From a bacterium (GTDB taxonomy: Bacteria > Desulfobacterota > Binatia > Binatales > Binataceae): 64,000 bases of DNA. The DNA lies in assembly GCA_014896235.1 (NCBI GenBank), contig JADBKU010000030.1, forward strand, positions 32,939-96,938, read 5' to 3'. A program made the translations under genes and the position numbers. The notes under the pieces are model-generated. The model searched no databases. It was not told where the DNA came from and saw only the letters and a list, made by a program, of their open reading frames with translations. The first letter of the stretch is position 1; the number at the start of each line of letters is the position of its first letter. This document shows, piece by piece, positions 35,620 to 46,247 of this stretch.

Positions 35620-36168
35620 GTGAATTCGATTCCATTGAACTGGCTGTGGAACGTTCTAACGATGTTAGGCGCGGTCGCAACCGCTGTGATCATCTATTGG
35701 CAGGCCGGCTTGCTGAGAGCGCAAAACCAGGTTTACGCCATAATGCAATTAAATTTGGCGTGGGATTCCCGCGAAATGTGCTCCTTGAGATCCGCGTGGG
35801 CCGATAACGCGGGCGATGCCGAAGCGGCCGAACCCATTTTGGAATTTCTGGAGGAATTCAGCGCATTGTTGAAGCGCGACGTCTTCAACGAAGAGCTGGT
35901 CTGGGATTCGACGCTTGGTTGGTACGCGGTGCGCTATTATTTCTACAGTCAGGAAAACGAGACAGTCGAGCGTCTCCGGGCAAAGTGGCGCGATCCAAAG
36001 CTTTACGAACATATCGAGGGACTCTGGCAAAATTACCGAAAACGCGAAGATGCGGAGTGGTGCGGGGGCGAAGAAACATTCGAGCAAAAGTTGCAGAAAA
36101 CAAGAGACAGCTTTGTAGCGGATGAGAAGGCACGTTATGCGCGTCGTTTTCCCGAAAGTCGTCATTGA
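35620..36168 (+). CDS. Hypothetical membrane-anchored protein (DUF4760-like)
   Basis: N-terminal TM, ILEFLEEF and LYEHIEGL; visibly more AT-rich than its neighbours. Confidence 0.55.
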   Translation: MNSIPLNWLWNVLTMLGAVATAVIIYWQAGLLRAQNQVYAIMQLNLAWDSREMCSLRSAWADNAGDAEAAEPILEFLEEFSALLKRDVFNEELVWDSTLGWYAVRYYFYSQENETVERLRAKWRDPKLYEHIEGLWQNYRKREDAEWCGGEETFEQKLQKTRDSFVADEKARYARRFPESRH

Positions 36169-36712
36169 ACTCAACCCGTCGGTTATTGACGGCGTGGGAG
36201 TGTTCGCGGTCTCCGCGTTCGAAGAGCGCCAGCGCATCGCCGAGGGAATTCACGAAGCGGAATATCGGCGGCTGATTCCCTGGAGCCACTTCGCCGCTTA
36301 CGAGGAAAATCTCCAGGAAAAAATCCGCGCGTTTTGCATAGGCACGCCCGAGGGCTTCCTCCCGCCCGACAAGCTCGATTTTAACCGTCTGACGATCGAG
36401 TGGTATCTGAACCATTCCTGCGACGGGAACGTCGGCTTCGACGAACGCGGCGATTTTATCGCCCGCCGTCGTATCCGGCGTGGCGAAGAACTGACCTACG
36501 ACTACGGTTTGGCCGAATCGAATCCGCGATTCCGCATGCGGTGTCGATGCGGCGCGGCCAATTGTCGCTCAATTATCACCGGCGACGACTGGAAAGATGC
36601 GGAGTTTAGGGAGCGCAATCTTCCATACATGCTGCCGCGACTGCGCCGGATGAAATACGGTGAAGAAATAATTGAAACGCCACGCCGCCGCGCCGCTTCT
36701 CATCGGCGTTAG
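36137..36712 (+). CDS. SET-domain protein with post-SET Cys motif
   Basis: IDGVGVFA, YLNHSCDGN, GEELTYDY and CRCGAANCR. Confidence 0.92.
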   Translation: MRVVFPKVVIELNPSVIDGVGVFAVSAFEERQRIAEGIHEAEYRRLIPWSHFAAYEENLQEKIRAFCIGTPEGFLPPDKLDFNRLTIEWYLNHSCDGNVGFDERGDFIARRRIRRGEELTYDYGLAESNPRFRMRCRCGAANCRSIITGDDWKDAEFRERNLPYMLPRLRRMKYGEEIIETPRRRAASHRR

Positions 36713-37718: not shown

Positions 37719-37838
37719 TCACTTCTTCTGTTCCATCGGCGCGCTACAGCATTTGATTGTGCCGGCCCCGCCTTTGGTGACGATTACCTGCGAGCCGCAT
37801 TTGCCACAGATATAGACTTTCCCCAGTTGATTCGCCAT
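37719..37838 (-). CDS. Desulforedoxin-like microprotein B, 39 aa (not in ORF track)
   Basis: MANQLGKVYICGKCGSQVIVTKGGAGTIKCCSAPMEQKK; C-x2-C-x15-CC; GGGAG RBS; paralogue at 42763-42906. Confidence 0.85.
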   Translation of the reverse strand: MANQLGKVYICGKCGSQVIVTKGGAGTIKCCSAPMEQKK

Positions 37839-37872
37839 TTCGTTCGCTTGCTCCCAATCTGCGAAATTCCGC

Positions 37873-38661
37873 CTATGCTCCCTTGAACAGCGGTTTGCGC
37901 TTGTTCAGAAAGGCCGCCACGCCTTCGGCGCGATCGGCCGTCGTTTGTAGCAAGGCGTACAAGTCCTCTTCAAGCCTGATACCCTGCTCGATCGTCATAT
38001 CGGCGCCCTTGCGCACGGCCTCTTTCGCCATCCGCATCCCGAGCGGTCCGCGGCTGTGCAGCACGCCGAACAGCTCGTCCGCGACGCGCTTCAGCTCCCG
38101 CCGGTCGCGCGCCAGATAGGTCGCCAGCCCCAGCCGCATCGCCTCGGCGCCGTCCAGCGCCGCTCCGCCCAGCAGCATCCGGAAGGCGTGCGCGGCGCCG
38201 ATCAGGCGCGGCAGCCGCTGCGTGCCGCCGAAGCGCGGCAGCGCCCCGCGCTCGAGCTGGGTCATCGTGAACCGCGCGCTCTTGACGGTCGCGCGGAGAT
38301 CGAGCGCCAGCGCCAGCTCCAGCGCCTCGTCGCCAATATCGCCGTTGACCAGCGCGACGGTTGGCTTGCCGATCCGCGCCAGCGTTTCCACCAGATCCGT
38401 ATCGACGTCGGGGTCGAAACCGGGCGCGAAAACCTCGCCGGCGCCGGTTACAGCAAGCGCCGCTATCTCGTCGTCGTCCTCGACCGTTTCCGCCAAATCG
38501 ATCAGCTCGCGCGCCATCGCACGGCTCACCCGGTTCGCGGCGGCGGGCCGCGCCAACGTCGCGACCATCACGCCGTCGGCGAGCGCGAGTTCGATAGCGC
38601 CCGGTCCGCTATCCAAGGCTTGGCGCGCGATTGCGCGGGGCTTTCGCCGGGGAGTCGCCAT
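37873..38661 (-). CDS. Crotonase-fold protein with degenerate active-site motifs
   Basis: GGTQRLPRLIG and TADRAEGVAAFLNKRKP.FKG are intact, but the usual motifs read VFAPGFD and GDIGDEALELALALD. Confidence 0.8.
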   Translation of the reverse strand: MATPRRKPRAIARQALDSGPGAIELALADGVMVATLARPAAANRVSRAMARELIDLAETVEDDDEIAALAVTGAGEVFAPGFDPDVDTDLVETLARIGKPTVALVNGDIGDEALELALALDLRATVKSARFTMTQLERGALPRFGGTQRLPRLIGAAHAFRMLLGGAALDGAEAMRLGLATYLARDRRELKRVADELFGVLHSRGPLGMRMAKEAVRKGADMTIEQGIRLEEDLYALLQTTADRAEGVAAFLNKRKPLFKGA

Positions 38662-38687
38662 CGTCGCGATCAAGCGCCGCGGCCGGT

Positions 38688-40238
38688 TCAGGCGCCGGCT
38701 TTCTGATTTGCATGCAACTCTTTGCGCAGGATCTTACCGAGCGCGTTTTTCGGCAACTCCGCGATAAATTCGATATTCTCCGGCCGCTTGAAGCTCGCCA
38801 GCCGCGTCCGGCAGAACTCCTGTATCTCCTTCGCGTCCGCCTTCCGTCCCTCGCGCAGAACGACGAAGGCTTTGATCGTTTGCCCCCATTCCACCGAGGG
38901 TTCGCCGATTACCGCGGCTTCTTCGATCGCCGGATGGCTCATCAGGACGGTTTCAATCTCCGCGGGCGCGATATTTTCGCCGCCGCGGATAATCATGTCG
39001 TCCTTGCGGCCGGCGAAGAAGATGTAGCCCTCCTCGTCGAGCCAGCCCAGGTCGCCGGTCGCGCGCCATCCGTCGGCGAGCGCGGCGTCGTCCTTGCGTC
39101 CCGCATAGCCTTTCATGATGCGGGGCGTGCGGATAATGATTTCGCCGACTTGTCCGGCTGCGAGGAATTTGCCGTCTTCGTCGCGCACCCGCACTTCAAC
39201 GTCAGGCAGCGGTTTGCCGATCGAATTGAGCCGCTTGAGCTTGAGTTCGATCTGTTCGGGCGTGCCTTCGATCCGATGGTCGTCGGGGCCGAGCACGGTC
39301 AGCGACGACGTGGTTTCAGTCTGTCCGTAGGCGTTGACGAAGCCGACATTTTTCGGGAACGCCTCGATCGCCCGGCGGATTACCGCCACCGGCATCGGCG
39401 CGCCGCCATAGGCGAGGTTGGTGAGCGACGAGAAATCGGTTTTGGAGAAGGCCGGATGGTCAAGCAACTGCTTCATCATCGTGGGCACGACAAAGGCGTG
39501 CGTGACCTTTTCGCGCTGCACCAATTCGAGCCAACTGGCCGGCTCGAACTGCGGCATCACGACCATCTTCCGGCCGGTCCAGAGGTTGGTCATCATCGCG
39601 GTCGTGCCAGCAATGTGGTAGAACGGCGCGCACACCAGAAACACCCCCCGCTCGGTTCCATCCGCCATCTCGACGTTCGCCGTCACGTAAGCCGTAAAAT
39701 CGTGGAAACTCAGCATCACGCCCTTGGGCAGCGAAGTCGTGCCGCTGGTGTACATCAGGACGGAAACGTCTTCTTCCTCGATTTCGGCCTCGGCTTCGTC
39801 GGGATCGGTTTTCGCGGCGAGATCGGTCAGCCGGGCAAGCGCGCCGTCGCCCTCGCCGAGCGCAATGCATTTGACGCCATTTAGCTTGGGATGAATCCGC
39901 TTTACGAGGTCGAGATAGCGATCGCCGACCAGCAACAGCCGCGCGTTCGCGGTGTTGATCATGTATTCGAGCTCGGGGTCCTTGGCGCGATAGTTGAGCG
40001 GCAAGAAGGTCAGGCCGGCCTTGGCGGCGGCGTAATAGCTGGCGATATAGAGGTGCGAATTGGTGTCGAGGATGGCCAGAACGTCGCGTGGCTTGAGGCC
40101 CTGTTGTCTGAAGACGCCGGCCAGCCGGGCGACCAAATCGTTTAGTTCGCCATAGGTGAGCCGGGTTTGTCCAAAGACCACGATTTCCTGCTCGGGCGCA
40201 ATCGAGCCGGGGATCGAAATGAAGTTGACGGTGTTCAC
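38688..40238 (-). CDS. ANL-superfamily adenylate-forming enzyme (long-chain acyl-CoA ligase-like)
   Basis: YTSGTTSLPKGV, PFYHIAG, YGQTET, TGDLG, GRKDDMIIRGGENI and LPKNALGK. Confidence 0.93.
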   Translation of the reverse strand: MNTVNFISIPGSIAPEQEIVVFGQTRLTYGELNDLVARLAGVFRQQGLKPRDVLAILDTNSHLYIASYYAAAKAGLTFLPLNYRAKDPELEYMINTANARLLLVGDRYLDLVKRIHPKLNGVKCIALGEGDGALARLTDLAAKTDPDEAEAEIEEEDVSVLMYTSGTTSLPKGVMLSFHDFTAYVTANVEMADGTERGVFLVCAPFYHIAGTTAMMTNLWTGRKMVVMPQFEPASWLELVQREKVTHAFVVPTMMKQLLDHPAFSKTDFSSLTNLAYGGAPMPVAVIRRAIEAFPKNVGFVNAYGQTETTSSLTVLGPDDHRIEGTPEQIELKLKRLNSIGKPLPDVEVRVRDEDGKFLAAGQVGEIIIRTPRIMKGYAGRKDDAALADGWRATGDLGWLDEEGYIFFAGRKDDMIIRGGENIAPAEIETVLMSHPAIEEAAVIGEPSVEWGQTIKAFVVLREGRKADAKEIQEFCRTRLASFKRPENIEFIAELPKNALGKILRKELHANQKAGA

Positions 40239-40245
40239 GGACTAA

Positions 40246-41058
40246 TTACCTCCTGCGCGGCGATGGCCGCGTGGCCGCCGCCTTGCCCAACGGCGCCTTC
40301 ACAAAATTGTCGAGCCGGGCGGCCAGCCGCCGTTCAAGATCGAGGCCTTGCGCCAAACTGGCGTCGAGGCCCTCCCAAACCGCAAATTTGGCGCAAGCGA
40401 CCCGCTCGCGCGGCATCCGGCTCAGCGCCTTGGCCATCCCAAATGCGGCGCGGTCGAGCTCCCGCCGCGGCACGACATCGGCGACCAAACCTATAAATAA
40501 AGCCCGATCCGCGTCAATCCATCGGCCGGTCAAATTCAAATCGAGCGCCCATCCGAAGGGCAGCCGGCGCGCCGCGGTCTGCGTCCCGGCGACGCCCGGA
40601 ATCATCCCAAGGCCGGTTTCGGGCAGGCAAAAGCGGGCGTCGTCGGCCGCGATCGCGATATCGCACAGCAGCGCCATCTCCAGTCCGCCGCCTACCGTAA
40701 AGCCGTGGACCGCCGCGACGGTCGGCACGGCCAGGCCGCGCAAACGGCCCCAAACGTCGCGCCGGAAACGAATCCAGCGCGCCGCGATCGGCGAGGGCGC
40801 GCTGCCGAATTCGCTAACGTCGCCGCCGGTCGAAAAAGCGGGTCCGGCGCCACGCAGCACCATCGCGCGGATTTCAGGATCGCGATGGACCGCGGTCAGC
40901 GCTGCGTACAGCGCGTCGCGCATCGCGACGTTATAGGCGTTCAGCCGCTCCGGCCGATTCAGGGTGATCCATGCGATCGCGCCGCGTTTCTCGAAAAGTA
41001 CGGGCGGCGAAGACGGACGCGAAGCCTTTCGCGCCGCCGTGACAGCGGTTCTGGTCAT
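40246..41058 (-). CDS. Enoyl-CoA hydratase/isomerase family protein
   Basis: LNRPERLNA, FSTGGDV, GGGLEMALLCD and LPETGLGMIPG. Confidence 0.9.
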   Translation of the reverse strand: MTRTAVTAARKASRPSSPPVLFEKRGAIAWITLNRPERLNAYNVAMRDALYAALTAVHRDPEIRAMVLRGAGPAFSTGGDVSEFGSAPSPIAARWIRFRRDVWGRLRGLAVPTVAAVHGFTVGGGLEMALLCDIAIAADDARFCLPETGLGMIPGVAGTQTAARRLPFGWALDLNLTGRWIDADRALFIGLVADVVPRRELDRAAFGMAKALSRMPRERVACAKFAVWEGLDASLAQGLDLERRLAARLDNFVKAPLGKAAATRPSPRRR

Positions 41059-41106
41059 CAGTGAAGAACGGCGAAAACCTGAATACTAAGAAGAATCTAG
41101 TACGAA

Positions 41107-42663
41107 TTATGGAGAATACAAGTTGGCCGTGTCGCTTTGCGCGATCGCCGGCCGGCCGCGTTCGTAAACCACTTTGCCGCCGATGATCGTTAGCTCGATC
41201 GGCAGGTTCGCGAGTTCGGCCGGCGCCGCCGCCAACGGATCGGCGCCCAGAACGATCAGGTCGGCGAGGTATCCGGGCTCGATTGCGCCGGCCGCAAGAC
41301 GGCTCAGCCGCGCCGCTCGGCTGGTGAAAAGCTCAAAGGCTGTGGCGACCGGCAGCGCTTCCGCGGGCGCCAGCTCTTCGCCCTCCGCGCCGCGCCGCGT
41401 CACCGCGGCGGCGATCGCCGTCAGCGGCCGTGGCGGCGTGACCGGAGCGTCCGTGCCGGCGGCAAGTTCGACGCCCGCGTCGAGCAGGCTGCGGGCGCGA
41501 TAGCGATAGGCCGTCAAACCGGGATCGGCGGCGTATTTCGCGGCGCGGTAATGGAGAAATCCGGGGTTCGTCACCACCCACACGCCCATGCGTGCGATGG
41601 CTTCCGGATAGTCGGGGGGAATTACTCCGCCATGCTCGACCCGGCATACCGTGCCCGCCGCCAGCCGCGGATTCATCTCTTTGCGAACCCGATGGATGGC
41701 GGTCAGGGCCGCGTTGATTTCATCCAGTTCGGTGGCGTGGAAGGCGGCGTCCAGACCGAGACTCAACGCCCGTCCGAGGTCGCGCGCCAGCCGTTCCGGC
41801 CGCGCGCGCGCGACGTCCATGAATTTGACTCCGGCCAGCCTGAGACCGGACGCATCGGCGATCCGGCGCGCTTCGCTCGCGGCGTCGATAAAATTTTCGC
41901 CAAGCATCACGCCGGCGCGCTGGCGAATCACGCCCGCGCTCGCCATGCGCGCAAGCGCCGCAATCTGGTTGGGACCATTGCGCACGGTGGCGTCGGTGAA
42001 CGCCGTGATTCCGCCGGCGGCGAGCTCCCGGCTGAAGTTGCGCGCGCGCGATTCCAGTTCCGCCGCCGTCACCAGCGGCAAACGATCCGACAGCCACTGT
42101 TCCAGTCCGGCCACGAAGCCGGTTAGCCGGCCGTCCGAATCGCGGTCGAGCCATGCGCCGTCCGGCGGATGAAAATCCGGCGATTCCAGTCCTAGGGCGG
42201 CTATGGCGCGCGAATTCAACCACGACGCATGGAGCGTCTGATGGCGCAGGCGAACCGGGTTGCGCGGCGCGGTTTGATCGAGTTCGGCGCGGGTCGGGCC
42301 GCGCCGCTCGGCGATCAAGGCCTCGTCGCAGCCGAATGCGCGCAGCCAATTGCCCGGCGGAGTGCGGCCCGCCGCCAGCCGCAGCGCGGCGAAAAGATCG
42401 CCGAGCGTACGGCATCGCTGAACGTTCGCGCCGGTGGTGGCGGCGGCGCCTTCCATGAAATGGAGATGGCAATCGACGAAGCCGGGCGCGACCGTCCGGC
42501 CGTTTAGGCGAATCAGATGGGTGCTGGGACCGACAAGCGATTTCAGCTCGTTAAAGCCGCCGTAAGCCATGATTCGGCCCGCGCCAACGGCCACCGAATC
42601 GCACTCGGGGTGACCAAAGACGCGGCCGTTATGCAGCACCAGATCGGCTTTATTCTGTGCCAT
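41107..42663 (-). CDS. Amidohydrolase (YtcJ/Amidohydro_3-like)
   Basis: PGFVDCHLH, FHATE, RVEHG, GTDAPV and GAIEPGYLADLIVL. Confidence 0.88.
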   Translation of the reverse strand: MAQNKADLVLHNGRVFGHPECDSVAVGAGRIMAYGGFNELKSLVGPSTHLIRLNGRTVAPGFVDCHLHFMEGAAATTGANVQRCRTLGDLFAALRLAAGRTPPGNWLRAFGCDEALIAERRGPTRAELDQTAPRNPVRLRHQTLHASWLNSRAIAALGLESPDFHPPDGAWLDRDSDGRLTGFVAGLEQWLSDRLPLVTAAELESRARNFSRELAAGGITAFTDATVRNGPNQIAALARMASAGVIRQRAGVMLGENFIDAASEARRIADASGLRLAGVKFMDVARARPERLARDLGRALSLGLDAAFHATELDEINAALTAIHRVRKEMNPRLAAGTVCRVEHGGVIPPDYPEAIARMGVWVVTNPGFLHYRAAKYAADPGLTAYRYRARSLLDAGVELAAGTDAPVTPPRPLTAIAAAVTRRGAEGEELAPAEALPVATAFELFTSRAARLSRLAAGAIEPGYLADLIVLGADPLAAAPAELANLPIELTIIGGKVVYERGRPAIAQSDTANLYSP

Positions 42664-42762
42664 CGGCGCACCCGTCCCCCTTTCTTGAATCGCGCGCGCC
42701 CTGCGCAAAATGTCGTAAGGGCGGCCGACGACGCACAATGGCGCGAGGCCGCCCCGACCGCG

Positions 42763-42906
42763 TCAGTCGGACGACGGAAGCGGCTTGGCCTCTTTCAATT
42801 TCATTTCGCCCTCGCAGCACTCGAGAGCGCCCGAACCGGCCTTGTTGCACAGCACTTCGGTGCCGCATTTCTCGCACATGTAACGCTTGCCGAGCACGTT
42901 AGCCAT
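42763..42906 (-). CDS. Desulforedoxin-like microprotein A, 47 aa, with C-terminal EAKPLPSSD tail (not in ORF track)
   Basis: MANVLGKRYMCEKCGTEVLCNKAGSGALECCEGEMKLKEAKPLPSSD; strong GGAGGA RBS; first gene of the cluster. Confidence 0.88.
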   Translation of the reverse strand: MANVLGKRYMCEKCGTEVLCNKAGSGALECCEGEMKLKEAKPLPSSD

Positions 42907-43005: not shown

Positions 43006-44019
43006 TTATTGGAACGGCAACTCGCTCACGACGCCCGAAAACTCGCCATTGACGGCGTGAACCGCGACCATCGCGCCGGGGATCCAGGCCTGCTGATGAA
43101 TAATCGCAAGGCCGATAGCGCCGAAGCGCGGCGAACGGACAATCGAGGTCAGACGGCCGACCTCCTTTTCCTGATAAATAACGGCGGCGCCGGGCGCGGG
43201 CGTGCGTTCTCCGGCAATCCTAAGCCCAAACAGTTTTTTTCTGATCCCGCCGCGCGCCGTCGCCCGCTCGATCGTTTCCTGCCCGACGTAGCATCCTTTG
43301 TTGAACGAAATCGCGCCTTCGAGCCGCGCTTCAAGCGCGATCGTTTTTTCGTTCGTATCGATTCCGACGCGCGCGCGGCCGTTCTCGACGCGGATGAGTT
43401 CGAGCGTCTCGGGCGTCACGCGAGCCGCCTCCGGCCGGTCTTTGGCGTCGAGGATTCTCGCCAATAGATCGTCAATTATCGTGCGTGAGGCGATTATCGA
43501 ATAGGCTTGCGTACCGTTGCGCGGCAGATTCGCGATAGTCATCCCGTCCGCCGCCATGTGCCGCCATTCCGTCAGGTCCGCAACGCCGCTGTCCGCGATC
43601 GCCGCCGCGGCTCGTGCGGAGAGCGGTCCTTCGAGGTCGAGCACTGCCATCTCGCCGAGCGTCTCGAACTCGACGTCGTCGGCGACCAGCAGGCGTTCCA
43701 GATGATCTCGGGCGGCCGGCCACAGCCGGCGATCGATTTCGATCAGCAGCGCATCAGGCGCGGCGTACAGGAAAAGATCGGCGATCAAATGGGCGCGTTC
43801 GTTGAGAATCAGCGCCGGGGCGACCGATCCCGCCGCGAGGCTTTTTACGTCCTGCGAGCACATCCCGTGCATGAACGCGACCCGATCGCTTCCGATCACG
43901 CGAATCAACAGCCGATCGGCAAGCGGTACGATTCCCGCGCCGTTGCGCAGAGCAAAATACTCGGCGTCGATCTGAGACTCCGGGAGTGCGTTCAAGGCGC
44001 CTTGCTCCAGCGAACTCAC
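43006..44019 (-). CDS. ygfZ: YgfZ/GcvT folate-binding protein
   Basis: GSDRVAFMHG and ISFNKGCYVGQE signature. Confidence 0.9.
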   Translation of the reverse strand: MSSLEQGALNALPESQIDAEYFALRNGAGIVPLADRLLIRVIGSDRVAFMHGMCSQDVKSLAAGSVAPALILNERAHLIADLFLYAAPDALLIEIDRRLWPAARDHLERLLVADDVEFETLGEMAVLDLEGPLSARAAAAIADSGVADLTEWRHMAADGMTIANLPRNGTQAYSIIASRTIIDDLLARILDAKDRPEAARVTPETLELIRVENGRARVGIDTNEKTIALEARLEGAISFNKGCYVGQETIERATARGGIRKKLFGLRIAGERTPAPGAAVIYQEKEVGRLTSIVRSPRFGAIGLAIIHQQAWIPGAMVAVHAVNGEFSGVVSELPFQ

Positions 44020-44228
44020 GTGAGGGAATTTCCGGCTTGCGAGAATAATGGCTGCGTCTAAAAAAATAACAGATTCGGCGCGTTCGCCACAACTCCGCCC
44101 GCGGCGATCGCGCGGCCTGGATTAGCCGCCGAGACGTTGGAGCCTGCGCGCTTCCGATTCGCTAGGGAGGGTCTTATAACGATCGTAAAAATTTGACGTA
44201 TAATCATCTGGTCAGGAAGATTTTGGGG

Positions 44229-46247
44229 ATGCGACCAGGACCGGCATCGCGCGGGCGGAATATTTCCGCGCACGCAAGGCGGCGAGCCGCCCCGCGCCGC
44301 TTGCGGGCCGCGTGGGTCGCCGCGATTCTGCTTGCCGCCGTATGCGCTTATGCCGTGACGCCCGCCCGGCAGGCCGCTGCGATTAGCGATCAGGCGTTCG
44401 CGATGCTTGCCGGTTTGAATGCGGCGAGCGGCGGCGCGTCGAATCCCGCGGTCGGGCCGATGGCGATATTTGCCGGAGACGCGCAGGCGCTCAGTCATGC
44501 GTTGGCGACCGGCGACGGGTCGTCGGCCGCGTCCGCGATGGCGTCGCTGGAGGCCGATGAGAAATCCGTCGATGCCGCCGCCGGGCGCCATCCGCACGGC
44601 TTCGACACGAATCAATGGAATGCGATCAAGCGGCAAATGACCGCGCTGGAAGCCGCCGTTCCATCAGCCGCCGCCGCGCCACGCGGCGCGCCTGCGCCCA
44701 TTACGCCGCCGCCGATCGCGCCTGCGAGCGCCGGCGCCGCGGAAAAGCCGATGACCGATTCCGCGTCCGGATTGGCGCCGCACGGCGCGCCGCAAGTCGT
44801 GATCGAATCGCGCAGTCTCGACGGCGATACGGTGCGCATCAAAGGCTACATGGAAGGCTCCGATCTGACGAGCGCGGGGCTGTTCGAGAACGGCCGCGAG
44901 GTGCGCGCCTTTCATATCGGCAAAGTCGCGGGCGAGGAACGCGTCAACTTCGATCTCGGGCTGGGCAATCCTTCTTCAACGACCACGATCAGAGTTTTCG
45001 ATTCGGCAGGCCGGATGGGCGAAGCGTCCGTACTTGAGCCTGGCTCGGGCGGCGCGGCGCCCCCGGCTGCGGCGTCAGCGGCCGCGGTCGCGCGAGAGGC
45101 GTCGAATGAGCCGGAAATTCCCGCGATGCGCCCGCCGAACGCGCCGACCGAAGAAGCCGGCGTCGAGGTCGATCGCAATTCTCCGAATTCCGCGGCGGGC
45201 AATCTGGCGGTGATTCCCTCGCATGGCGCGCCGCGGCCGTCGCCATCGAAGCGCCATACGATGGCGAGCCGGCTGGCGGATTTCCATATCGACGTTATCG
45301 CTGTGAATCAGGTCCAAACGCAGCCGCCCATCTATGAAATCATCGGGCAGATTGAAGGGCGGGGCGTGAACCGCGCGGGAATTTATATCAATGGCCGCCT
45401 CGTCCATCGGATCCCGGTTGCCAGCGGCGCGCCGTTGAACAGCTTCGATCAGCGCTTCACGCTCGAAGGCGGCGCCCCGACGATCCGCGCCTATGCGATG
45501 GGCGACCGATTTATCGAAACGCCGGTCGATCTGGGCAATTCGCTCGCGTCGGCCGAACCGATGCCGCCAGCCGCCGCCGCGCCGATGACCGGCGGAGCCA
45601 TGCTCGGCGGAGCGCCCGTCATGGCCGCAGGCATCGCCATTCAAATCGCCGCCGTCGGCTCAATCTCGCCGACGCAGTCGGTCGTGTCCGGCGTGATTTC
45701 CGGCAAGCACATCGTCAGCGCCGGGCTTTATCAGAATGGGATGCTGGTGCAGGCGATTCCGGTCCGCCACGGAATCGGCGCGATGATCGGTTCGCTCCTG
45801 CCCGGCTCGTCGAACAACGTGAATTTCAACGTCCGGTTCGATCCGCAAGCCGGACCGGCGACGATCCGCGCCTACTCCGGCAAGGGCATCTACGCCGAAC
45901 AGCCGGTCGTCGCGGGCGCCACGAATAATCCCTACGCCGGCGGAACGACGACTTACGGCGGTTCGTATTCCTACAGCGCGCCGCCCGTCGTAATGATGCC
46001 GTACAGCGGCTACGGCATGTCGCCCTATGGAATGAGTCCCTACGGCTACGGGACATCGCCGTACGGAATGAGCCCTTATGGGTACGGTATGTCGCCGTAT
46101 GGAACGTATGCGCCGGCGATGCCGCCGAACGGCGTGTATGCGAATCCCGGCGCGGCCAGTCCGTATGCGGGCGGAACTTTCGGCGCGCCGCCCATCAATC
46201 CTTACGCCCCGCCGACCAATCCGTTCAGCGGCCCGCCCGTCCGCTAA
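44229..46247 (+). CDS. Large exported protein with three internal beta-rich repeats and a Tyr/Gly/Met/Ser/Pro tail (start uncertain)
   Basis: Hydrophobic signal AAWVAAILLAAVCAYA and a repeated AG(L/I)(F/Y)xNG...TIR(V/A)(F/Y) unit. Confidence 0.75.
   Translation: MRPGPASRGRNISAHARRRAAPRRLRAAWVAAILLAAVCAYAVTPARQAAAISDQAFAMLAGLNAASGGASNPAVGPMAIFAGDAQALSHALATGDGSSAASAMASLEADEKSVDAAAGRHPHGFDTNQWNAIKRQMTALEAAVPSAAAAPRGAPAPITPPPIAPASAGAAEKPMTDSASGLAPHGAPQVVIESRSLDGDTVRIKGYMEGSDLTSAGLFENGREVRAFHIGKVAGEERVNFDLGLGNPSSTTTIRVFDSAGRMGEASVLEPGSGGAAPPAAASAAAVAREASNEPEIPAMRPPNAPTEEAGVEVDRNSPNSAAGNLAVIPSHGAPRPSPSKRHTMASRLADFHIDVIAVNQVQTQPPIYEIIGQIEGRGVNRAGIYINGRLVHRIPVASGAPLNSFDQRFTLEGGAPTIRAYAMGDRFIETPVDLGNSLASAEPMPPAAAAPMTGGAMLGGAPVMAAGIAIQIAAVGSISPTQSVVSGVISGKHIVSAGLYQNGMLVQAIPVRHGIGAMIGSLLPGSSNNVNFNVRFDPQAGPATIRAYSGKGIYAEQPVVAGATNNPYAGGTTTYGGSYSYSAPPVVMMPYSGYGMSPYGMSPYGYGTSPYGMSPYGYGMSPYGTYAPAMPPNGVYANPGAASPYAGGTFGAPPINPYAPPTNPFSGPPVR
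46011..46110 (+). repeat. Coding tandem repeat of YG(M/T)SP with YG spacers
   Basis: YGMSPYGMSPYGYGTSPYGMSPYGYGMSPYG; the codons are synonymously diverged. Confidence 0.85.

Follow-up and report, generated by a model that had tools for sequence, protein, structure and literature searches.

A widespread family of small tailed proteins is tied to one group of ANL ligases in Binatia and other bacteria

DxA and DxB are two microproteins of 47 and 39 amino acids (aa) encoded in a stretch of 64,000 nucleotides (nt) from a bacterium of the Binataceae (assembly GCA_014896235.1, contig JADBKU010000030.1, positions 32,939 to 96,938; hereafter the window). Their genes bracket those encoding an amidohydrolase, a canonical enoyl-CoA hydratase (ECH1), an ANL (acyl-CoA-synthetase-like) ligase and a degenerate crotonase (ECH2). 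Here we report that both microproteins are members of an undescribed and widespread family of small proteins with a C-terminal tail, which occurs in several phyla and is tied to one group of ANL ligases. Constant across the architectures were the C-terminal tail, a GKRY motif and an ANL ligase of this one group, while the metal site, a ygfZ-like gene, the amidohydrolase and the presence of a nearby crotonase were variable.

Results

Linkage of the small proteins to the ligase and crotonases in Binatia

We confirmed 421 DxA loci in species-representative genomes. The best 80 of these 421 loci, looked at by title, came mostly from Candidatus Binataceae, Binatus or Binatia; the remainder were titled Deltaproteobacteria, with a few Proteobacteria, two Acidiferrales, one Betaproteobacteria and one Thermodesulfobacteriota. 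With DxB as query, a match was found in 49 of 61 relatives, including all 36 genomes of the same family, mostly as two hits a few kb apart. This tally counts one unpublished genome (G028), as the tally of 151 Binatia genomes used below counts another (G414), and each adds one genome to the counts of family f1; none of the other results depends on these two genomes.

The order ygfZ-DxA-[amidohydrolase]-ECH1-ligase-ECH2-DxB was found in all 16 distant loci, which belong to several families, with unrelated DNA inserted in two of them. Among 80 Binataceae loci, 54 extend for at least 6.5 kb downstream of DxA; 50 of these carry ECH1, the ligase, ECH2 and DxB, and the other four carry none of the four genes. 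In three of the exceptional genomes, ygfZ-DxA-amidohydrolase and ECH1-ligase-ECH2-DxB were located at separate places, and in the fourth DxB was found on another contig. Five other families of the same GTDB phylum harbour the order ECH2-ECH1-ligase-DxB-DxA, with the two Dx genes in tandem and ygfZ absent. The tails in these families read QEPKPLASSD, KEPKPLPSSD or QQPKKKPSSD, and the neighbouring genes encode NMO/FabK-like proteins (6/9 loci), family III CoA-transferases (5/9), amidohydrolases (4/9) and acyl-CoA dehydrogenases (4/9). In genome G000 the best NMO candidate was only 42% identical to the operon-linked NMO, and we do not claim orthology for it.

When presence was compared by family, a Dx or tailed protein and an orthologue of the ligase agreed in 15 of 19 Binatia families. 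The four exceptions (f10, f12, f107 and f111) carry a fused, 102-aa form of the small protein together with a divergent ligase; here the tailed protein was present and no ligase orthologue was found at E ≤ 1e-120. Of the linkage of the two peptides to the ligase and crotonases in homologues, on which the first-pass annotation of this DNA had made its proposal depend, the part that concerns the ligase holds across several gene orders and phyla, and a nearby crotonase is a variable feature.

Three loci showed deviating arrangements. Locus L140 (G259:C10, 7495-7644, minus strand) encodes an extra, divergent DxA-like paralogue at a distance from any ligase; its cysteine pattern is altered and its tail reads REAKLSLPSSD. 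In L136 (G129:C2, 1737-4324, plus strand) DxB is duplicated, with two unrelated open reading frames (ORFs) between the copies, and the same two ORF families occupy the ligase position, between ECH1 and DxB, in L135 (G208:C10, 8345-9961).

Fused single-chain forms lack ligand cysteines and keep the tail

The Binatia genome G044, which is 100% complete, contains ygfZ-amidohydrolase-ECH1-ligase-ECH2 with neither Dx gene, and a 97-aa gene elsewhere. By hhalign, the N-terminal half of this 97-aa form resembles DxB (98.3%, E 1.7e-14) and the C-terminal half resembles DxA (99.1%, E 6.7e-19). In the G044 protein all eight ligand cysteines are replaced, and the tail, ELKEAKPLPSSD, is intact. The 97-aa family comprises 262 clusters; among the 120 listed, nearly all have lengths of 96-98 aa, and the mean column identity is 83% in a sample of 21. 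It was detected in 13 of 151 sampled Binatia genomes, from four families and each without a separate Dx hit, and occupies the DxA slot in four loci.

The second fused form, of 102 aa, has two or three cysteines and the tail LKEAKPLPSSD. In 7/7 loci its gene lies 4-95 nt from that of a 37-39% identical ANL ligase. All 16 fused sequences end in (S/A)SD, so that the terminal Asp is found in 16/16. The N-terminal half of the 102-aa form was not shown by hhalign to match DxB, the top hit being the C-terminal half; it gave a weak PF06397 match (19.1 bits, below the cut-off) in one Rhodococcus member, and a structural neighbour in the ESM Atlas. Only one of five models of the 97-aa form was confident (pLDDT 76), and a Foldseek search with it returned nothing meaningful. 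The tandem arrangement and the fusions indicate that DxA and DxB act as one unit, and an essential redox role is strongly disfavoured, since two fused lineages have lost the cysteine ligands and are nevertheless conserved.

In one locus (L182, G360:C18, 3382-14871) the 102-aa form is clustered with genes for ETF-alpha, a DUF35 protein (zf-ChsH2 + OB), an SCP-x-type thiolase, an FAD_binding_2 protein, a luciferase-like monooxygenase and two crotonases, an arrangement reminiscent of steroid or alicyclic acid degradation clusters.

Several further fusion candidates were rejected or left as unproven. Long open frames joining ygfZ and DxA are frame overlaps in GC-rich DNA, and ygfZ has its own stop codon. 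Two apparent fusions of DxA with the amidohydrolase, P0002 and P0013, each form a cluster of one member and have a frameshifted tail; they probably stem from errors of assembly. Five more candidates came from the best 150 representatives of the family. P0374 (ANL ligase C-domain + small protein) and P0274 (2Fe-2S domain + small protein) keep the Met of the small protein after a short linker and are treated as unproven, as read-through artefacts are possible; P0351 and P0354, with frameshifted or spurious upstream sequence, are treated likewise, and P0323 is a false hit to cadherin repeats.

The family in cultured bacteria

The 102-aa form was found in ESM Atlas clusters whose commonest phyla are Pseudomonadota and Actinomycetota. 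A tblastn search against PLSDB returned 19 plasmids, from Rhodococcus (12), Streptomyces (3), Sphingobium (2), Sphingomonas (1) and Mycobacterium (1), and wherever the homologue was annotated at the match it was called 'hypothetical protein'. Ten of the 19 loci were inspected. In nine of them the gene directly adjoins an ANL ligase, annotated as 'class I adenylate-forming enzyme', 'fatty acid--CoA ligase' or 'AMP-binding'. Each of the ten proteins has LP(S/A)SD at its C-terminus, retains the GKRY motif and contains one to four cysteines; the C-terminal half of these proteins matches DxA at 99.4%. In a library clustered at 50% identity, a profile of the Binatia 102-aa form retrieved 1119 representatives at E ≤ 0.001 and 611 at E ≤ 1e-10.

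For the fused forms we found no covering entry in Pfam, NCBIfam or the PDB, and a literature search returned no publication on the ligase linkage or the tail. In the part of the Binatota paper PMC8262859 that a word search covered, the terms rubredoxin, enoyl-CoA hydratase, acyl-CoA synthetase, YgfZ and amidohydrolase did not occur.

The associated ligases and the other partner enzymes

The ligase gene (38688-40238, minus strand) encodes AMP-binding (PF00501, 295.9 bits) and AMP-binding_C (PF13193, 81.6 bits) domains and scores 482.8 bits against PRK06187, with a cut-off of 476. Among PDB entries, the feruloyl-CoA synthetase 8wev matches it best. All of 22 orthologues share G501 and K502, and we take K502 to be the C-terminal catalytic Lys. 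In a quick IQ-TREE reconstruction of 47 ANL sequences, all 38 ligases associated with a small protein, including that of the window, fell on one side of a branch with an SH-aLRT support of 95, the other side being made up of nine paralogues from the same genomes or loci. This is suggestive of the associated ligases being separate from their paralogues as one group. The earlier claim that the two peptides are tied to this ligase is borne out by the recurrence of the link in several gene orders and phyla, by nine of the ten inspected plasmid loci and by this branch of the tree.

ECH1 (40246-41058, minus strand; ECH_1, 161 bits) retains both catalytic Glu residues and the oxyanion motifs in 24/24 orthologues, features that identify it by sequence as a canonical acyl-CoA hydratase. 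ECH2 (37873-38673, minus strand; ECH_1, 119 bits) had been called degenerate, which is correct: the second catalytic Glu is absent in 24/24 orthologues, the first is kept in 22/24, and the GG(G/A)D oxyanion motif is lost, the sequence at its place being variable. ECH2 is probably a pseudo-enzyme subunit. The Amidohydro_3 metal-dependent hydrolase (41107-42738, minus strand; PF07969, 228 bits) has only the uncharacterised hydrolases 3igh and 3icj as PDB relatives. It is a facultative member, absent in 3/16 Binatia loci (L033-L035) and in many loci elsewhere.

The gene preceding DxA (43006-44019, minus strand) is ygfZ-like, with GCV_T and GCV_T_C domains, a TIGR03317 score of 76.3 bits (cut-off 49) and the sequence KGCYVGQE; we assume KGC(Y/F)xGQE to be the signature of the YgfZ/COG0354 family, the product being a folate-binding protein of the COG0354/CAF17 type. 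Apart from the true gcvT, it is the sole GCV_T-family gene of the genome. It is an additional member of the conserved Binatia unit that the first-pass annotation had overlooked: ygfZ lies upstream of DxA in 16/16 loci and heads the operon in all Binatia arrangements, including those with the cysteine-less fused gene in the DxA slot. It was found in none of the non-Binatia loci. YgfZ is a folate-dependent Fe-S maintenance factor.

DxA and DxB are conserved proteins of desulforedoxin ancestry

The genes for DxA (42763-42906, minus strand; 47 aa counted from the second ATG) and DxB (37719-37838, minus strand) are both real. Their orthologues are strongly conserved and share the same ATG start, and both genes are under purifying selection, with dN/dS values of 0.086 for DxA, computed over 2943 pairs from 87 unique sequences, and of 0.114 for DxB (74 sequences). 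A profile search retrieved 1151 clusters of homologues, mostly of 47 aa and mostly annotated as 'hypothetical protein'. Both genes had indeed been hidden by the ORF cut-off, as reported at first, but public data routinely call the 47-aa genes. DxA ends in KEAKPLPSSD, its tail comprises 12 conserved residues, and all 103 DxA sequences end in SSD, the terminal Asp being invariant (103/103).

BLASTP aligned DxA and DxB with 18/38 identical residues (E 3e-13), to which the common Met adds the nineteenth of the 19 of 39 shared residues counted earlier. The spacing C11-x2-C14-x15-C30-C31, reported as identical in the two proteins and equal to that of desulforedoxin, was recovered: C-x2-C-x15-C-C is the same in DxA and DxB and in the 15/15 DxA and 16/16 DxB orthologues aligned. 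A non-Binatia DxA orthologue in locus L131 (G183:C6, 7956-8093, minus strand) has C-H in place of the adjacent C-C, possibly an early stage in the loss or alteration of the metal site.

DxB scored 33.1 bits against PF06397 (Desulfoferrod_N; cut-off 23) and DxA 21.8 bits, slightly under the cut-off; against TIGR00319, DxB reached 27.8 bits (cut-off 36.05). For both family profiles the first PDB matches were desulforedoxin and desulfoferrodoxin N-domains, with E-values for desulforedoxin 1cfw of 5.6e-7 (DxB) and 3.7e-4 (DxA). An AF2 model of DxA (pLDDT 77.2) has a flexible tail, the last block having a pLDDT of 58. Its best Foldseek match was desulforedoxin 1dxg_A (root-mean-square deviation 1.2 Å over 33 columns, TM 0.81 by target). 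Desulfoferrodoxin N-terminal domains came next, and the E-values were weak (0.012), the chain being short. These data show that DxA and DxB are of desulforedoxin ancestry.

The genome (3.52 Mb in 64 contigs, 95% complete) contains only these two Dx genes and, elsewhere, one canonical rubredoxin. The lack of a superoxide reductase (SOR) domain, first noted for the gene cluster, extends to the whole 95%-complete genome, in which PF01880 was not found.

Gene layout and transcription

The six genes from DxA to DxB are co-directional, as had been described, all lying on the minus strand at the positions given above, which we confirmed. With the ygfZ-like gene in front, the order of transcription is ygfZ-like, DxA, amidohydrolase, ECH1, ligase, ECH2 and DxB. 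A ribosome-binding site had been noted ahead of each microprotein, and we found GGAGGA 7 nt upstream of the DxA ATG and a weaker one, GGGAG, 12 nt upstream of the DxB ATG. A scan for promoters and terminators gave no signal above shuffled sequences. Contigs from four RNA libraries (X1-X4, 95-99% alike) cover both Dx genes and span the DxB-ECH2 junction, ygfZ-DxA-amidohydrolase, and the ECH1-ligase and ligase-ECH2 junctions; as these data are contigs, their coverage gaps and depth are uninformative, and they do not prove a single transcript. Since the flanks vary between genomes, we take the unit to extend from ygfZ to DxB.

Near the amidohydrolase start, at 42715-42719, three RNA runs differ from the window by a compensating 1-base insertion and deletion within 4 nt, either a strain difference or an assembly slip. 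A small membrane protein gene of the Transgly_assoc type (PF04226; 36709-36951, minus strand) follows DxB in many Binataceae loci and stays behind it despite rearranged flanks and in split operons; it may belong to the transcription unit. On the other side, an ORF of 684 aa (44193-46247, plus strand) with C-terminal SPYG(M/Y)-type repeats is conserved next to ygfZ, in divergent orientation, across many loci of the Binataceae. A further ORF of 196 aa (36122-36712, plus strand) contains NHSCDGN and ELTYDY-like motifs in its translation, which are reminiscent of SET-domain methyltransferases.

Discussion

A possible accessory subunit of an ANL ligase

We tentatively propose, as a possibility somewhat short of an even chance, that DxA and DxB are the split, metal-binding form of the small-partner family, and that the unit they form is a non-covalent accessory of one clade of ANL ligases. 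Its halves, each of the desulforedoxin fold and arranged as B followed by A, would form one beta-rich unit, as a heterodimer here and as a single chain in the fused relatives. This unit would present the flexible and near-invariant C-terminal tail K-x-A-K-P-L-P-(S/A)-S-D-COOH together with the GKRY motif, and would dock non-covalently on the ligase as a non-catalytic subunit, following a logic like that of the MbtH-like proteins. Once docked, it may tune or enable adenylation and thioester formation. The ligase would then feed an ordinary CoA-dependent route, in which ECH1 would hydrate the substrate, ECH2 would act as a pseudo-crotonase subunit and the amidohydrolase would be optional. That the partners bind physically, that the tail docks on the ligase and that the contact is non-covalent are what we infer. 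Co-folding of DxA and DxB with the ligase gave ipSAE values of 0.01 and 0.11, with a mark of 0.32, and weighs neither way on binding.

Several points weigh against this proposal. The interaction between the two microproteins and the ligase is proposed from gene context and sequence, and a flexible tail with an invariant terminal residue is a feature expected of covalent carriers rather than of accessory subunits. Neither fold nor sequence revealed a likeness to MbtH-like proteins. The gene of the 97-aa form lies away from the ligase operon in nine of the 13 genomes that carry it, and the plasmid homologue H18, one of the ten inspected, has no ligase within 3 kb. The ligase tree is a quick search with nine long-branched outgroup sequences and a midpoint root, and the contigs from the RNA libraries may include carried-over DNA.

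Alternative explanations

The best-surviving alternative, which we nevertheless consider unlikely, is that the small protein is a covalent acceptor or carrier: the ligase would adenylate the carboxylate of the C-terminal Asp or acylate a Ser or Lys of the tail, the small protein would then bear an acyl, amino-linked or CoA-linked group, and hydrolases or transferases would discharge it. This broadens the idea of the first-pass annotation. The tail is predicted to be flexible and its last residues are invariant across phyla, in the DxA and the fused sequences alike, and invariant terminal residues recall carriers and modifier proteins. ANL enzymes activate carboxylates, amidohydrolases recur nearby, and several loci have family III CoA-transferase genes next to that of the small protein. 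Against this, the ligase has the usual acyl-CoA-synthetase architecture, with PRK06187 above its cut-off, ECH1 is predicted to be a canonical acyl-CoA hydratase, the amidohydrolase is facultative and no likeness to LysW was found; moreover, we are aware of no ANL enzyme that activates a protein terminus. Because the ligase and ECH1 resemble standard CoA enzymes and the neighbourhoods are CoA-centred, we favour the accessory subunit over the covalent carrier. Slightly less likely, in our judgement, is a new, phosphopantetheine-independent kind of carrier in which the ligase would activate or acylate the PLPSSD tail, the cargo, a substrate or CoA-derived group, would be used or discharged by neighbouring CoA-transferases, crotonases or amidohydrolases, and the desulforedoxin fold would be a mere handle; recruitment purely as a handle would explain how the metal site could be dispensed with.

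These considerations also bear on the first-pass annotation, which had pictured the two microproteins as a heterodimeric carrier or cofactor protein loaded by the ligase. That they act as a unit stood, on account of the tandem genes and fusions; the cofactor reading is weak, as the Fe(Cys)4 site is dispensable in the fused relatives. Of the suggested parallel with LysW-type carriers, the unit, the ligase link and the acidic C-terminal residue on a flexible tail were retained, and membership in the LysW family was not. The crotonases had been assigned the processing of a tethered intermediate. The canonical ECH1 and the neighbourhoods rich in CoA-dependent enzymes favour CoA-bound over protein-tethered intermediates. 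Nor can the amidohydrolase be the obligatory release step proposed for it, since it is missing from 3/16 Binatia loci and many others.

An improbable explanation is that the small proteins serve a partner other than the ligase, as an adaptor for ECH2, the CoA-transferases or YgfZ, or as a small regulator, the adjacency to the ligase reflecting no more than a shared operon. The putative pseudo-enzyme ECH2 is found along with the split forms, in all Binatia loci ygfZ lies ahead of DxA or of the fused gene, and the genomes with split operons keep DxA with ygfZ and the amidohydrolase, away from the ligase. However, the ligase is the sole recurrent immediate neighbour in the ten inspected plasmid loci and the seven loci of the 102-aa form, ygfZ is absent from all non-Binatia loci, and several loci have no annotated crotonase within the flank shown. 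Very improbable is an electron carrier, that is, a desulforedoxin- or rubredoxin-type Fe(Cys)4 pair serving a flavoenzyme of the pathway (NMO/FabK-like reductase or acyl-CoA dehydrogenase) or an oxygenase elsewhere: although DxA and DxB keep the four desulforedoxin cysteines, NMO-family genes (6/9 loci) and acyl-CoA dehydrogenases (4/9) are found nearby outside Binatia and P0274, a possible read-through artefact, joins a 2Fe-2S ferredoxin domain and the small protein in one frame, both fused forms are without most or all ligand cysteines yet conserved with their genomic partners, the constant neighbour is the ligase, a non-redox enzyme, the Pfam scan revealed no redox enzyme in the Binatia operon, and a canonical rubredoxin is present elsewhere in the genome.

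Comparison with known systems

The likeness to desulforedoxin (Dx of Desulfovibrio gigas, 1dxg/1cfw) and the desulfoferrodoxin N-domain lies in cysteine spacing, profile and modelled fold. Desulforedoxin is a dimer of two such chains, which fits a DxA/DxB pair. In contrast to desulforedoxin, there are two distinct paralogues here, DxA has a tail, the pair is linked to an ANL ligase, the genome lacks SOR, and relatives of DxA and DxB have lost the metal site.

MbtH-like proteins are small, encoded beside the ANL adenylating enzymes of non-ribosomal peptide synthetases (NRPS), and act as their non-catalytic partners. The analogy with them is functional only, as Pfam scans of DxA, DxB and the fused forms gave PF06397 or nothing relevant. 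Furthermore, the partner here is a ligase of the acyl-CoA-synthetase type, in place of an NRPS adenylation domain, and the conserved element is the C-terminal tail. LysW and ArgW are small Cys4 ribbon carriers whose tail ends in a conserved acidic residue and whose gene cluster includes a hydrolase. The DxB profile reached LysW (3wwl) with an E-value of 0.048 and no passing stretch, and the DxA profile gave no match. Our operon differs from the LysW system in having an ANL ligase and no ATP-grasp enzyme (LysX/ArgX-type) in the Pfam scan, a tail ending in AKPLPSSD and not EDWGE, and a hydrolase that is facultative.

Scaffolds of the DUF35/ChsH2 type, with a zinc ribbon and an OB-fold, are small rubredoxin-like ribbon proteins that act as non-catalytic partners of CoA-pathway (thiolase) enzymes. 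They occur in the same neighbourhoods as our small proteins, but consist of other domains (PF12172 + PF01796), have another, thiolase-like partner and lack a conserved tail. Dedicated pairs of an acyl carrier protein (ACP) and an acyl-CoA synthetase (ACS)-like ligase also occur, such as the one reported to be linked to bacterial serine palmitoyltransferase (PMC9386255). Common to such pairs and ours is the co-occurrence of an ANL-type ligase with a small dedicated protein; theirs is a phosphopantetheinylated four-helix ACP, whereas no ACP fold or motif is present here.

Significance

ANL ligases are among the most studied and engineered enzymes. Besides the MbtH-like proteins of NRPS, we know of no dedicated small partner of acyl-CoA-synthetase-type ligases, and our literature search found none. 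The family described here comprises at least 611 representatives at 50% identity and spans uncultured Binatia as well as the tractable Rhodococcus, Streptomyces and sphingomonads. A missing partner of this kind could be the reason that some catabolic ligases fail on expression by themselves, and the family clearly illustrates how the fold of a redox metalloprotein has been put to new use as a scaffold without metal.

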